The translations under genes and the position numbers were made by a program. Of a stretch of 30,842 nucleotides of DNA, positions 10,134 through 12,726 are shown piece by piece. This stretch comes from Bacillota bacterium. GTDB taxonomy: Bacteria; Vulcanimicrobiota; SpSt-956; JAKJGF01. Below the pieces are notes generated by a model, which was given only the letters and a program-made list of their open reading frames with translations, was not told the DNA's origin and made no database searches. How positions within the stretch are numbered: the first letter of the stretch is position 1; every line of letters starts with the position of its first letter. Location: NCBI GenBank assembly GCA_022704525.1, contig JAKJGF010000033.1, forward strand, positions 1 through 30,842. The letters run 5' to 3'.

Positions 10134-12614
10134 ATGGCTGAAGGACGCGAAAGGGATCTGGTACTGGCACCAAATGAATATGCTTTTATTTTAGATGAGA
10201 CTAAAGGTAATGTTATTGCTTATGTGGGACCTCATAAAACCAGTCTTGCCAATACTGACAGGCCAGTAATTTTTGAGCAGAATTCAAGACGTTTTAAAAG
10301 ATGTAATCTGGAAGAAGCTATAACACAATATCCTTTTGCAGAAGAAGGGTGGTATATAGTTTTAGAAAATCCTGCTAAAGGAGGGGAAGAGGAACATCCC
10401 AGAAGTGGTCCCAACAGTCTGCCTAAATTGATTTCCGGATGTAAAGTGAATATACCCGGTCCTGTAACTTTTCCTCTGTGGCCGGGACAGGTGGCATATG
10501 TTCAGGGACATCATCTGAGATCCAATCAGTATCTTGTGGTTCGTGTTTATAATGAAGAAGCTGCCAGAGAAAACTGGGCAAAAGCTGTTATTAAACCTCA
10601 GAAGGCCGGTGGAAATGACATTTCTTCTAATTCTGTTGATTTGAAACCAGTAGAAATTCCTGATCTCACAATAGGTAAATTACTTGTTATTAAAGGCACC
10701 CATGTTTCTTTCTATATTCCACCTACAGGTATAGAGGTTGTTCAGGATCATAATGGGAGGTATATCCGTAGGGCAGTTACCCTTGAGAGGCTTGAATACT
10801 GTATTCTTCTGGATGAAGATGGAAATAAGCGATTTATTCAGGGCCCTGATGTGGTTTTCCCAAAACCTACGGAAATTTTTGTTGAGAAAAATGGTTCCAG
10901 GAAGTTTAAAGCCATAGAATTGAATGAAATAAGTGGTCTTTATATAAAGGTTATAGCGCCTTATAAAGATGAAGATGGAATAGAACGTAAGGTTGGTGAG
11001 GAACTTTTTATAACAGGTAAGGATCAGATGATTTATTTTCCGAGGCCCGAACATGCTATTATAAAATACAGTGAGCAGGAAATTCATTATGCTGTGGCCA
11101 TTCCTGCAGGTGAAGCACGATATGTCCTTAACAGACTGAATGGAGAAATTTCACTCAGACGTGGCCCCTGTATGTTTCTCCCTGATCCCAGAAAAGAGGT
11201 TATTGTAAGAAGAGTTCTTGATGAAAAGGCAGTAAAGCTTATGTTTCCCGGAAATCAGGAAGCTCTGGAATATAACCGGAGACTTATGGAGCTAACGAGC
11301 AAGATTAAGGCTGATTATGTTACGGATCGTGAAGCTTTAGAGGGCTTTGCTCCCAAGGGGAGAAAACTTGATATGGTTTCTGAGGAAAAAGATAGAAAGA
11401 GGGAAAAAGCCAAAGAAGGTTTTGCCGGTGATGATTTTACAAGAAAACAGACCTATACTCAACCCAGGACTATTACCCTTGATACAAAATATGAAGGAGC
11501 TGTTACAATAAATGTCTGGACAGGTTATGCAGTTCTGGTGGTGAGTAAGACAGGAGAGAGGAAGGTTATTGTAGGCCCTCAGTCCCATCTTCTTGAATAT
11601 GATGAAACACTTGAATATATGGAACTTTCGACAGGTACTCCCAAAAGTGATAACAATTTATTTAAAACAGTATATCTCAGGGTTTTAAATAACAAGGTTT
11701 CAGATATTGTCACTGCTGAAACAAAGGATCTCTGCCAGGTGAGAGTCCATTTATCCTACAGGGTAAATTTTGAAGATCTTCCTGAGAAATGGTTCAATGT
11801 GGAAAATTATGTTAAATTTCTTACAGATCATATGAGATCATTAATCAGAAATATAGTTAAACAGAAGGGTATTGAAGAATTTTATGCCAGTGCTATAAGT
11901 ATTATCCGTGATACAATACTTGGTGTTCCTTCTGAGGGAGGAAAACGTCCTGGAAGAGCCTTTGAAGAAAATGGTATGAGGGTTTATGATGTAGAGGTTT
12001 TAGATGTAACTATTGGTGACAGTACCATAGCCAGTCTTCTTATACAGGCCCAGCACACGGCAGTTCAGCAGACTATTCAGATTGCCCAGGAAAATAGGAG
12101 ACTTGAAATTACACAGAAGACAGAAGAAATAAAACAAAAGATTGCCGAAGCCCAGGCGGAAACAACTCAGAGAGGTTTAAACCTTGCTATAGAAGAAGTC
12201 AGAAAAAATCTAGAACTGGCTTTAACTCAGATTGTTTCCGAACTGGATACAGAGGAAAAACGACTCTCTGGAAAACTTGCTCAGCAGGAAAAACTTTCGA
12301 GTATTTCTCAGTCAGAACTGGATAGAGAAAGATTACGTCAGGAACAGGAACTTACTCTGGCCGAAAAAGCTATGCATCAACGTATAGCCGAACTTCGTGA
12401 AGATGTGCAGGCAGTAGTTGATAAGGCAGGAGCAATTTCGCCTGATCTTATAGCAGCTCTTCAGGCTTTTTCTGATAAGAATCTTGCAGAAAAAGTTGCT
12501 GAAAGTATGGCACCTCTTGCAATTATCGGTGGTAAGAGTATTTTCGAAGTGTTTTCTAATTTGCTTAAAGATACACCTTTAGAGAATATTTTGAAGAAAA
12601 AGGGGAAAGAGTGA
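10134..12614 (+). CDS. Major vault protein (MVP) homolog, full length (MVP repeats + shoulder + cap-helix + cap-ring-like C-terminus)
   Basis: AAGGAG RBS about 11 nt upstream. The segments APNEYAFILDE...VGPHK...WYIVLENPA...FPLWPGQ parallel eukaryotic MVP repeat 1. The segments IVTAETKDLCQVRVHLSYRVNFE and DVEVLDVTIGDSTIASLLIQAQHTAVQQTIQIAQE parallel the MVP shoulder. A ~150-aa heptad coiled coil and an AISPDLIAALQAF...SIFEVF tail parallel the cap-helix and cap-ring. The comparison is to human MVP recalled from memory. Confidence 0.8.
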   Translation: MAEGRERDLVLAPNEYAFILDETKGNVIAYVGPHKTSLANTDRPVIFEQNSRRFKRCNLEEAITQYPFAEEGWYIVLENPAKGGEEEHPRSGPNSLPKLISGCKVNIPGPVTFPLWPGQVAYVQGHHLRSNQYLVVRVYNEEAARENWAKAVIKPQKAGGNDISSNSVDLKPVEIPDLTIGKLLVIKGTHVSFYIPPTGIEVVQDHNGRYIRRAVTLERLEYCILLDEDGNKRFIQGPDVVFPKPTEIFVEKNGSRKFKAIELNEISGLYIKVIAPYKDEDGIERKVGEELFITGKDQMIYFPRPEHAIIKYSEQEIHYAVAIPAGEARYVLNRLNGEISLRRGPCMFLPDPRKEVIVRRVLDEKAVKLMFPGNQEALEYNRRLMELTSKIKADYVTDREALEGFAPKGRKLDMVSEEKDRKREKAKEGFAGDDFTRKQTYTQPRTITLDTKYEGAVTINVWTGYAVLVVSKTGERKVIVGPQSHLLEYDETLEYMELSTGTPKSDNNLFKTVYLRVLNNKVSDIVTAETKDLCQVRVHLSYRVNFEDLPEKWFNVENYVKFLTDHMRSLIRNIVKQKGIEEFYASAISIIRDTILGVPSEGGKRPGRAFEENGMRVYDVEVLDVTIGDSTIASLLIQAQHTAVQQTIQIAQENRRLEITQKTEEIKQKIAEAQAETTQRGLNLAIEEVRKNLELALTQIVSELDTEEKRLSGKLAQQEKLSSISQSELDRERLRQEQELTLAEKAMHQRIAELREDVQAVVDKAGAISPDLIAALQAFSDKNLAEKVAESMAPLAIIGGKSIFEVFSNLLKDTPLENILKKKGKE

Positions 12615-12726
12615 GCAGTGAGAAGTGAGCAGTGAGAAGTGAAAAGTAAGAAATGAGAAGATCAGGTATATTACTATATATTCATGATAAATAATAAATC
12701 ACGCTTCACGTCTCACGTCTCACCCC
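12611..12726. repeat. Opposed heptamer arms between convergent genes: (GTGAGCA/GTGAGAA...) x7 - 39-nt spacer - (TCACGCT/TCACGTC/TCACGTC/TCACCCC)
   Basis: The left arm spans 12611-12659 and begins inside the MVP TGA stop. The right arm spans 12699-12726 and contains the radical-SAM gene stop (TCA at 12713-12715). The arms are imperfect reverse complements. Confidence 0.6.

Follow-up and report, generated by a model that had tools for sequence, protein, structure and literature searches.

Tandem repeats of 7-nt units at the edges of genes have been described in several bacteria. The GGGAATC repeats of Xanthomonas and the GGGGAYT repeats of Nostoc PCC 7120 are strongly intergenic. Their downstream copies read on the coding strand at a 0-50 bp distance to the stop codon, some of them overlapping it, and copies upstream of open reading frames (ORFs) read on the non-coding strand; some inverted pairs are able to make stem-loops, length and sequence differ between related species at the same spacer, and the function is not established (Rehm et al. 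2015, PMC4692102). TAACTGA repeats, in 2 to 43 copies, are found in marine Beggiatoaceae, some Cyanobacteria and Bacteroidetes; according to the author, their stop triplets limit ORF overlap to the forward orientation, and most arrays in BOGUAY precede a start codon by a few nucleotides, with one indirect repeat among 170 sets (MacGregor 2015, PMC4679880). As quoted in the same paper, a survey of long simple sequence repeats (SSRs) with 5-11-nt units had heptamers as the commonest class in most surveyed genomes, described a scattered phylogenetic distribution and proposed polymerase slippage (Mrazek 2007 via PMC4679880). Here we report a family of tandem heptamers with the core GTGA(G/A) in a 30,842-nt stretch of DNA (contig JAKJGF010000033.1, hereafter the window) from an uncultivated digester bacterium. 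The arrays lie on or just past the stop codons of about one-third of the window genes, and on balance we regard them as heptanucleotide SSRs, that is, as bacterial microsatellites.

A family of GTGA-core heptamers in the window

Arrays were located with Tandem Repeats Finder and our own period-7 scan, apart from the array at 4302-4322, which was found by a search for the GTRA core and by reading of the spacer. The repeat core is GTGA(G/A), or GTRA in a looser form, and 2-3 free positions complete the unit. In the window, GTGAGNNGTGAG occurs 20 times, against 0.03 expected from dinucleotide-preserving shuffles; GTGA-core tandem heptamers of at least two units form 15 arrays (0.71 expected), and those of at least three units form 10 (0.00 expected). 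The window is 89% coding, with the other 11% non-coding or gene edge, and all 15 arrays are situated in spacers or at gene edges. The numbers and positions of these arrays indicate that the repeat family recognized in an earlier note on this DNA is genuine. The density of heptamer arrays is 0.29 per kb. Two-unit matches to the looser GTRA core are expected by chance 5.5 times per window. Only period 7 is enriched, with 9, 17 and 16 arrays in the window and in the related contigs L127 and L129, respectively; periods 6 and 8-12 gave just 0-3 arrays per period in the same three sequences. An assembly artefact was ruled out, as the same arrays are seen in seven independent assemblies.

The arrays and two-unit matches of the window are as follows.

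828-862, plus strand: S9 peptidase 3' array, five units (GTGAAGT GTGAGAT GTGAGAG GTGAAGA GTGAATA), beginning 2 nt past the TGA of gene 4-825
863-877, minus strand: inverted partner of 828-862, read on the minus strand as ATGAGAG GTGAAGA G; perfect 16-bp stem with 842-862
2605-2618, plus strand: weak two-unit match (GTGAAAA twice), 38 nt upstream of the start of a minus-strand gene and not at a 3' end
4302-4322, minus strand: ltaE array (GTAAGAG GTGAAGA GTGAGAC); the TGA of unit 2 is the stop of ltaE (4312-5343), and the following gene begins about 10 nt on
8080-8109, minus strand: lepA array, four units (GTGAGAA-GC-GTGATGC GTGATGC GTGAAAT) taking up all 30 nt that separate lepA from the HemN-like gene; lepA has the TGA of unit 1 as its stop; unpaired
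12611-12659, plus strand: MVP array, seven units (GTGAGCA GTGAGAA GTGAGCA GTGAGAA GTGAAAA GTAAGAA ATGAGAA) decaying toward the 3' end; the TGA of unit 1 is the stop of the MVP gene (10134-12614)
12696-12723, minus strand: array of the 369-aa gene (GTGAGAC GTGAGAC GTGAAGC GTGATTT); the TGA of unit 2 is the stop of gene 12713-13822; pairs with 12611-12647
14841-14912, plus strand: 10.3 perfect GTGAGAC copies that make up the distal arm of an inverted pair; a promoter-like site lies between the array and the start of the 224-aa gene
14913-14932: loop between the arms at 14841 and 14933, 20 nt, AT-rich and itself partly palindromic
14933-15079, minus strand: array of the 326-aa gene, about 20 copies (20.4) of GTGAAGC, GTAAAGC or GTGAAGT; the TAA of gene 15075-16055 lies within the first, degenerate unit
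16038-16051, plus strand: two-unit match upstream of the start of a minus-strand gene and not at a 3' end
19607-19627, plus strand: array of the transglutaminase-like (TGc) gene (GTGAGAG GTGAGAC GTGATGA); the TGA of unit 2 is the stop of gene 17959-19617; unpaired
20506-20533, plus strand: antisense array (GTGAGAG twice, GTGAAAA twice) preceded by an A-run, between two minus-strand genes and 92 nt from the stop of the 1238-aa gene
25125-25145, plus strand: distal arm of an inverted pair (GTGAGAC GTGCGAC GTGAGAC)
25183-25233, minus strand: array of the 300-aa gene, GTGAGCA five times after degenerate GTAAAAA and GTGAAAA units; abuts the TAG of gene 25234-26136

Twelve sites had been listed in the earlier note, and four of them are dropped here. 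The interval 10052-10106, in the promoter spacer of the divergent lepA and MVP genes, has GTGAG and CTCAC as single copies and no array; 24370-24390 is degenerate and no better than chance; 16038-16051 is not at a gene 3' end; and the site given as 2614-2640 corresponds, with shifted coordinates, to the weak match at 2605-2618. The array at 20506 is real and breaks the orientation rule discussed below, and the remaining sites stand.

Gene ends, stop codons and orientation

Eight genes end in an array or no more than 17 nt from one: those for the S9 peptidase, LtaE, LepA, the MVP homologue, the 369-aa and 326-aa proteins, the transglutaminase-like protein and the 300-aa protein. All eight of these 3'-end arrays give GTGAR when read on the coding strand, and an array of about 13 units located after a gene stop in L361, a contig of the same species from outside the window, is in the sense orientation too. 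For five genes (MVP, lepA, ltaE, transglutaminase-like and 369-aa), the stop codon is itself a TGA of the array, in unit 1 or 2. LepA ends here in DDG-TGA and in its relatives in DEE, DED or DDD with a TAG or TAA stop, which indicates that the array took over the stop. Transitions between units of one array (GTGAG, GTGAA, GTAAG) keep the stop triplet. In arrays of at least three units, the 5' end of the GTGA strand was the gene-proximal end in 10 of 11 cases in the window.

The embedded stops reported earlier for MVP, lepA, ltaE and the TGc gene were confirmed, and the stop of the 369-aa gene 12713-13822 is embedded as well. The radical SAM gene of the window is 6906-8075; Pfam found no domain in 12713-13822 or 15075-16055, and the earlier labels "radical SAM" and "S51" were not reproduced. 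The orientation rule, by which each array reads GTGAG on the coding strand of the gene that ends there, holds for all 3'-end arrays and fails as a universal rule. The plus-strand arrays at 14841, 20506 and 25125 sit in spacers between minus-strand genes, and the weak arrays at 2605 and 16038 have the same setting; each forms the distal arm of an inverted pair or is found upstream of the following gene, reading on the non-coding strand of that gene. As upstream-of-gene arrays, those at 14841, 20506 and 25125 are solid, and the remaining upstream cases in the window are chance-level two-unit matches. The rule for upstream positions known from GGGAATC-type repeats was followed by about seven arrays of L127 and L129 and not by one or two; across phyla the count was 17 versus 14 arrays (own ORF heuristics; among the matches listed).

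Two further ideas about the arrays were considered and rejected. Arrays born from a stop-bearing heptamer would leave an upstream stop in phase with the units; of 39 arrays with the stop upstream, 8 had it in phase (5.6 expected), which is not significant. Mimicry of the Shine-Dalgarno sequence was dismissed because only GTGAGAG-type units resemble GGAGGTGA, and GTGAGAC, GTGAGCA and GTGAAGC do not.

Inverted pairs and predicted hairpins

Two arrays of opposite orientation in one spacer always read 5'-(GTGANNN)n...(NNNTCAC)m-3', and there are four such pairs in the window. The facing arms are predicted to form long imperfect hairpins. The fold of 14800-15085 (minus strand) reached -100.8 kcal/mol (z -6.7); that of 820-900 (plus strand), which contains the perfect 16-bp stem, -31.1 kcal/mol (z -5.05); that of 12600-12740, -37.0 kcal/mol on the plus strand (z -3.6) and -41.2 kcal/mol on the minus strand (z -4.1); and that of 25095-25240 (minus strand), -31.9 kcal/mol (z -2.2). 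These values agree with the earlier proposal that facing arms can pair. For the unpaired arrays, such as those of lepA and the transglutaminase-like gene, folding predicted no structure.

The arrangement in the spacer 14791-15074 marks the place where a terminator would sit: on the transcribed strand, the stop is followed by the 20-unit arm, the AT-rich loop, the 10-unit arm, CUUUUUAUUU and the strong promoter-like site of the next gene. U-rich runs past the 3' arm occur at three window loci, namely in 14791-15074 (CUUUUUAUUU), at 25100-25124 and at 20485-20505. Most hairpins of facing arrays lack a U-tract, and neither 828-877 nor 12611-12723 has a clear one. A T-tract past the 3' arm was seen on a fraction of 0.11-0.12 of the sides versus 0.05-0.07 at random positions, and within the clade in 27% versus 21%. 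Given this weak enrichment, stems that are stable but mostly devoid of a U-tract, and unpaired arrays with no predicted fold, the arrays are probably not canonical intrinsic terminators, and the description "terminator-like" in the earlier note is not upheld. Window gene ends that have no array carry ordinary hairpin-plus-T terminators (6710-6735, 14082-14105, 24526-24552 and 30240-30268).

The same note had called the repeats "REP-like", after the repetitive extragenic palindromic (REP) elements. The unit is no palindrome, the spacers between the arms differ in sequence among the four pairs without any resemblance, and these pairs showed no target-site duplications. An identity with REP elements or miniature inverted-repeat transposable elements (MITEs) was discarded on account of the unrelated spacers and the non-palindromic unit. 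No match at the gathering score was found for the window in Rfam, and a search of 12500-15200 at E<=1 returned sub-threshold microRNA-like hairpins only. A separate hairpin with a GTAG head (GTAGGGGCGAAC-N7-GTTCGCCCC, 27-30 nt) is located at 14079-14105 of the window, at 11838-11866 of L129 and at 13270-13298 of L133. It recurs in non-orthologous spacers of three related species and stands between heptamer arms in L129; it has the look of a genuine REP-type element, or else of a terminator hairpin that these species share.

Copy number and related genomes

About 40 kb of DNA of the same species was examined (the window and L361), together with further contigs from several digester metagenomes. 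The GTGAGAC arm at 14841 has 10 copies in the window, 14 in L003 and 15 in L001, and the GTGAAGC arm at 14933 has 20.4 copies in the window and 18.4 in L003; the two arms of this pair thus vary in length independently. Short arrays are identical across the same-species contigs. The copy-number differences between populations suggest that the arrays change by slipped-strand mispairing. Contigs L002 and L004 break inside the GTGAGAC array, at the equivalent of about 14841-14912, so that arrays of this kind fragment short-read assemblies.

LepA of the window species is identical to that of "bacterium ADurb.Bin363", which is placed in Candidatus Eremiobacteraeota in one record, and the nearest named phyla show 66-67% identity. 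The relatives differ in their repeats as follows.

L127 and L129 (LepA identity 84-85%): 0.7-1.2 period-7 arrays per kb, in nearly every spacer; units CGTGACG, GTGAGTA, GTGATCA, GTGAAAA and TGGGTGT
L133 (LepA identity 79%): fewer period-7 arrays, mainly GCTGA-type
L131, L134 and L135 (LepA identity 74-76%): zero arrays in about 60 kb

The 3' spacers of lepA and MVP hold arrays in the window, L127 and L129, with different units (GTGATGC, GTGAGTA and GTGATCA). The propensity to form arrays is clade-specific and their positions recur, while the sequences turn over fast around a GTGA/GTRA core that is kept. The MVP homologue itself (10134-12614; Pfam MVP_shoulder, Vault_3 and Band_7) is encoded divergently beside lepA in L127 and L129 as well as in the window species. 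Between these two divergent genes in L129 (9599-9657), four copies of TGGGTGT face ACACCCA in a stop-less, telomere-like pair with the G-rich arm first.

A second heptamer type, whose core also contains TGA, is present at two places in the window.

5415-5445, minus strand: GCTGANN four times, in a divergent spacer
29753-29773, plus strand: GCTGAAA three times, between two plus-strand genes

GCTGA-type heptamers are also found at 3476-3494 and 16449-16476 of L133, where this type is dominant.

Other phyla and viral contigs

The pattern GTGAGNN x4 was searched across phyla with one genome per species, and gene calls were made by our own ORF heuristics. At least 120 genome stretches, spanning many phyla, carried such arrays, as did at least 120 viral contigs; the phyla among the matches listed include Gemmatimonadota, Bacteroidota, Planctomycetota, Cyanobacteria, Desulfobacterota, Proteobacteria, Acidobacteriota and Verrucomicrobiota, besides others. 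A control with the permuted core GAGTGNN x4, which overlaps GTGAGTG arrays, likewise matched at least 120 viral contigs. The occurrence of GTGAGNN arrays in so many phyla and in viral contigs contradicts the earlier view that they are lineage-specific and could serve as a taxonomic signature; array density alone is clade-specific.

The polarity seen in the window recurs among the matches listed, to which the counts of this paragraph refer. Of 80 arrays, 64 had the 5' end of the GTGAG strand nearest to the gene (64 vs 16, p = 6e-8), and the median gap to the gene was 12.5 nt at the 5' side versus 99.5 nt at the 3' side. With the GC content restricted to <=0.52, where the heuristics are reliable, the same polarity was 28 versus 5. 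By heuristic calls, 58 arrays lay within 60 nt past the end of a same-strand gene versus 13 by the end of an opposite-strand gene, and in viral contigs the polarity was 58 versus 31. The free positions often differ between units of one array. These gene-call and distance tests replaced a first orientation test (69 vs 11), which was biased since an array closes every frame reading into it. A test based on the longest ORF at +/-150 nt showed no bias; such a test cannot be trusted when GC content is high or when ORFs run through the stop-free strand.

The convergent arrangement is close to invariant. Inverted neighbours were convergent rather than divergent at a ratio of 30:0 in genome loci and 62:1 in viral contigs among the matches listed, and 11:0 in the clade. 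Also among the matches listed, both arms had an identical unit in 34 of 58 pairs, versus 11.5% when arms were re-paired between loci; at least one arm abutted the end of a long same-strand ORF in 66 of 74 pairs; and inverted pairs of any heptamer unit had the arm with more G than C first at 35:3. The fixed arrangement would follow largely from the anchoring of arrays at stops, as an inverted copy then fits on the far side only.

Explanation of the arrays

Collectively, these findings lead us to favour, with some reserve, an account in which the arrays are heptanucleotide SSRs shaped by slippage, by a polarity that stop codons make tolerable, and by hairpins of REP-like effect at gene 3' ends. 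They would be of the same kind as STRRs, the GGGAATC-type repeats of Xanthomonas and Nostoc and the TAACTGA repeats of Beggiatoaceae, so that the kind has already been described and the GTGA family is a fresh example of it. The arrays would grow and shrink by slipped-strand mispairing, to which the copy-number differences between populations point, and would occupy the transcribed, untranslated gap that starts at the stop codon. Because each unit has a TGA and 7 equals 1 modulo 3, three successive units close all three frames; an array can consequently touch or overlap an ORF end in the sense orientation only, and its own TGA then becomes the stop. A sense array may touch or replace the stop harmlessly, and an antisense array, being stop-free, presumably cannot, so that orientation on the gene side would be set by what translation tolerates. 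The embedded stop would be an outcome of this arithmetic and not a designed safeguard. An inverted copy being possible only away from the gene, the invariant order 5'-(GTGANNN)n-loop-(NNNTCAC)m-3' results, and transcripts of either strand would fold into a long imperfect hairpin. Hairpins of REP elements and of bacterial interspersed mosaic elements (BIMEs) can protect mRNA 3' ends. By analogy, the most plausible role for the hairpins of the inverted pairs is that of a barrier or pause at the 3' end of the mRNA; the unpaired intra-operon arrays of lepA and ltaE are probably mere spacing.

Several observations weigh against this account. Close relatives also have arrays in divergent (5'/5') spacers. 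Tolerance does not fully explain why antisense arrays are rare near 3' ends or why arrays lie so close to stops. Stop-less G-rich heptamers have the G-rich arm first as well (10:3), and G/C strand asymmetry, rather than stop codons, may be the true determinant. The gene calls in the cross-phylum scan are noisy in high-GC DNA, and the T-tract enrichment past 3' arms is too weak to support canonical intrinsic termination. A second reading, clearly less probable in our judgement than the SSR account, takes GTGA(R)NN arrays as distinct cross-phylum modules that are polar, palindromic and anchored at stops, of the form 5'-(GTRANNN)n-loop-(NNNTYAC)m-3', and produced otherwise than by slippage plus tolerance. 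Its basis is the 103 convergent versus 1 divergent arrangements over three data sets (partly among the matches listed). Such modules might be a selected device of the 3' untranslated region, providing a frame-independent ribosome stop and then a protective or terminating hairpin for transcripts of either strand, or might be the footprint of a sequence-specific process that generates period 7.

Among the rival explanations, we consider it unlikely that the inverted pairs are bidirectional hairpin terminators of these genes, built of heptamers. The pairs are at the expected place, most clearly in 14791-15074 with its order of stop, arm, loop, arm, CUUUUUAUUU and promoter-like site; the U-rich runs at 25100-25124 and 20485-20505 fit as well, and so does the finding that gene ends without arrays have ordinary terminators. 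The T-tract frequencies, at 11-12% of sides versus 5-7% at random positions and 27% versus 21% in the clade, argue against it, as do the pairs 828-877 and 12611-12723 with no clear U-tract, the independent drift of arm lengths, and the half of the arrays that are unpaired, some of them within operons (lepA, ltaE). Selection for three-frame stops past the gene, catching read-through or frameshifted ribosomes, would account for the TGA or TAA in every unit, the transitions that preserve it, the five genes that use an array TGA as their stop, the sense orientation of all 3'-end arrays and the TGA in further heptamer families (GCTGANN here, TAACTGA). Three units would suffice for this purpose, yet arrays reach 10-20 units with length free to vary; stop-less heptamers show equal polarity (GGGAATC, PMC4692102; GATTGCG, TGGGTGT); and arrays are present upstream of genes and in divergent spacers too. 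A study of fail-safe additional stops in bacteria states in its title that there is no evidence for their selection (PMC6764699), which also weighs against this idea. It is not needed for the data and fits poorly with arrays of 10-20 units and with stop-less heptamers; we hold it to be improbable, and the safeguard role claimed earlier for the stops is an unproven overreach. A protein that binds in a 7-nt register, either an RNA regulator of the TRAP/HutP type on GUGA/GAG or a polar roadblock on DNA, would be in keeping with a core of 4-5 nt that is kept across arrays beside 2-3 free positions, and with the strict period of 7. We give it little credence, as the core drifts in relatives (GTGAC, GTGAT, GCTGA, TGGGTGT), copy number spans 2 to more than 20, arrays occur in very many phyla with no shared candidate protein identified, and Pfam gave no candidate gene in the window.

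Two further explanations were weighed. R-loops form preferentially with G-rich RNA, are kept down when translation is coupled to transcription, and make repeats unstable. The arrays could accordingly be a functionless mutational by-product, in which G-rich RNA past the end of translation forms R-loops, the G-rich non-template strand slips in replication, and sense arrays expand by the stops. This seems rather unlikely to us. It fits the start of arrays where ribosome coverage ends, the precedence of the arm with more G than C among inverted pairs of any unit (35:3, among the matches listed), the lack of sequence conservation at the same site between species, and the sharp contrast in heptamer density between sister lineages, such as a change in repair or of the RNase H type might cause. 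The 7-nt period and the arrays in divergent spacers of relatives are left unexplained by it, and the complementarity of arms past the core suggests templated copying or selection for pairing. Least probable of all, and very improbable in itself, is a mobile palindromic element (REP/BIME or MITE-like) with heptamer arrays as its ends. In its favour are the inverted arms around a short spacer, the numerous copies in spacers and the GT(A/G)-type head, which we take to resemble the GTAG head of REP elements. The unrelated spacers of the four pairs, the variation of units from locus to locus, the inability of single units to form hairpins, and the lack of target-site duplications at the pairs and, by Pfam, of a transposase or RAYT gene in the window speak against it.

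Significance of the arrays

The arrays set the true ends of a third of the window genes, and they break short-read assemblies, as two contigs that stop inside one array demonstrate. They are ready variable-number tandem-repeat (VNTR) markers for strain tracking of an uncultivated digester bacterium and are unsuited as a lineage marker. The earlier note was right on the 3'-end arrays and the embedded stops, was wrong on lineage specificity, and went too far on the terminator and safeguard roles. With this stop-containing family, the few heptamer families with a known gene-end position or strand bias gain a member, and the gene-end bias and strictly convergent inverted arms recur across many phyla and viral contigs. 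The old question of why long bacterial microsatellites are so often 7 nt in period and polar to genes is sharpened; a dedicated study is still worthwhile for two aspects, the near-invariant convergence of the arms in different phyla and the confinement to period 7.

Other features of the window

Four further features were noted.

2693-2779: long inverted repeat CTTAGTACCGCAACAGG ... CCTGTTGCGGTACTTAG right past the end of the gene with the CxxCxxCC domain; the hairpin is large and has no relation to the heptamers
5865-6653: 243-nt tandem repeat, 3.2 copies with about 79% identity, within ORF 5592-6680, whose product has a corresponding 81-aa repeat and no confident Pfam domain
17248-17610: PemK/MazF-type toxin gene, with an overlapping 85-aa ORF just upstream (about 17607-17864, by the gene call in the same-species contig L001) that is likely an antitoxin
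24388-24439: perfect 26-nt direct repeat (CAGGTAATATATTTCTTTATATTAAT twice), 45-96 nt upstream of the start codon of the 1238-aa gene (24343); it may be a regulatory duplication

Comparison with known repeat families

Like intrinsic terminators, the paired arrays are at gene ends, have stable predicted stems and in some cases have U-rich runs; unlike them, they have very long and imperfect stems whose length varies, they mostly lack the U-tract, and many arrays are unpaired. With the REP and BIME elements of enterobacteria they share the spacers at gene 3' ends and inverted copies that form predicted hairpins. A REP element has a fixed, conserved sequence of 20-40 nt that makes up an imperfect palindrome, and a RAYT transposase moves it, whereas the unit here is a 7-nt non-palindrome that varies by locus and shows no sign of mobility, and no RAYT (IS200/IS605-like) transposase was found by Pfam among the window ORFs.

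Three defining properties of heptanucleotide SSRs are present: head-to-tail 7-nt units beyond chance, a bias to non-coding DNA and copy-number polymorphism. The heptamer unit is shared with the long SSRs of Mrazek et al. (2007) and the cyanobacterial STRR of Mazel et al. (1990); as far as the available texts of these surveys go, a GTGA core, an embedded stop and a fixed convergent arrangement are not described there. With the TAACTGA repeats, the window arrays have in common an intergenic position, stop-bearing heptamers and a patchy distribution across phyla; they differ from those of BOGUAY in being anchored at stop codons and in that inverted pairs are common.

The closest likeness in position is to the downstream copies of GGGAATC-type repeats, since eight loci in the window and one in L361 have a sense array that is 0-17 nt from the stop or contains it. 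The unit here is GTGA(G/A)NN instead of GGGAATC or GGGGAYT. It holds a stop triplet, does not form G-quadruplexes (GTGAGAC, GTGAGCA and GTGAAGC are without GGG runs), shows no preference for four units, and its host is an uncultivated digester bacterium. Both families are intergenic tandem heptamers that read in the sense orientation near stops, overlap stops, form inverted pairs and vary between species.

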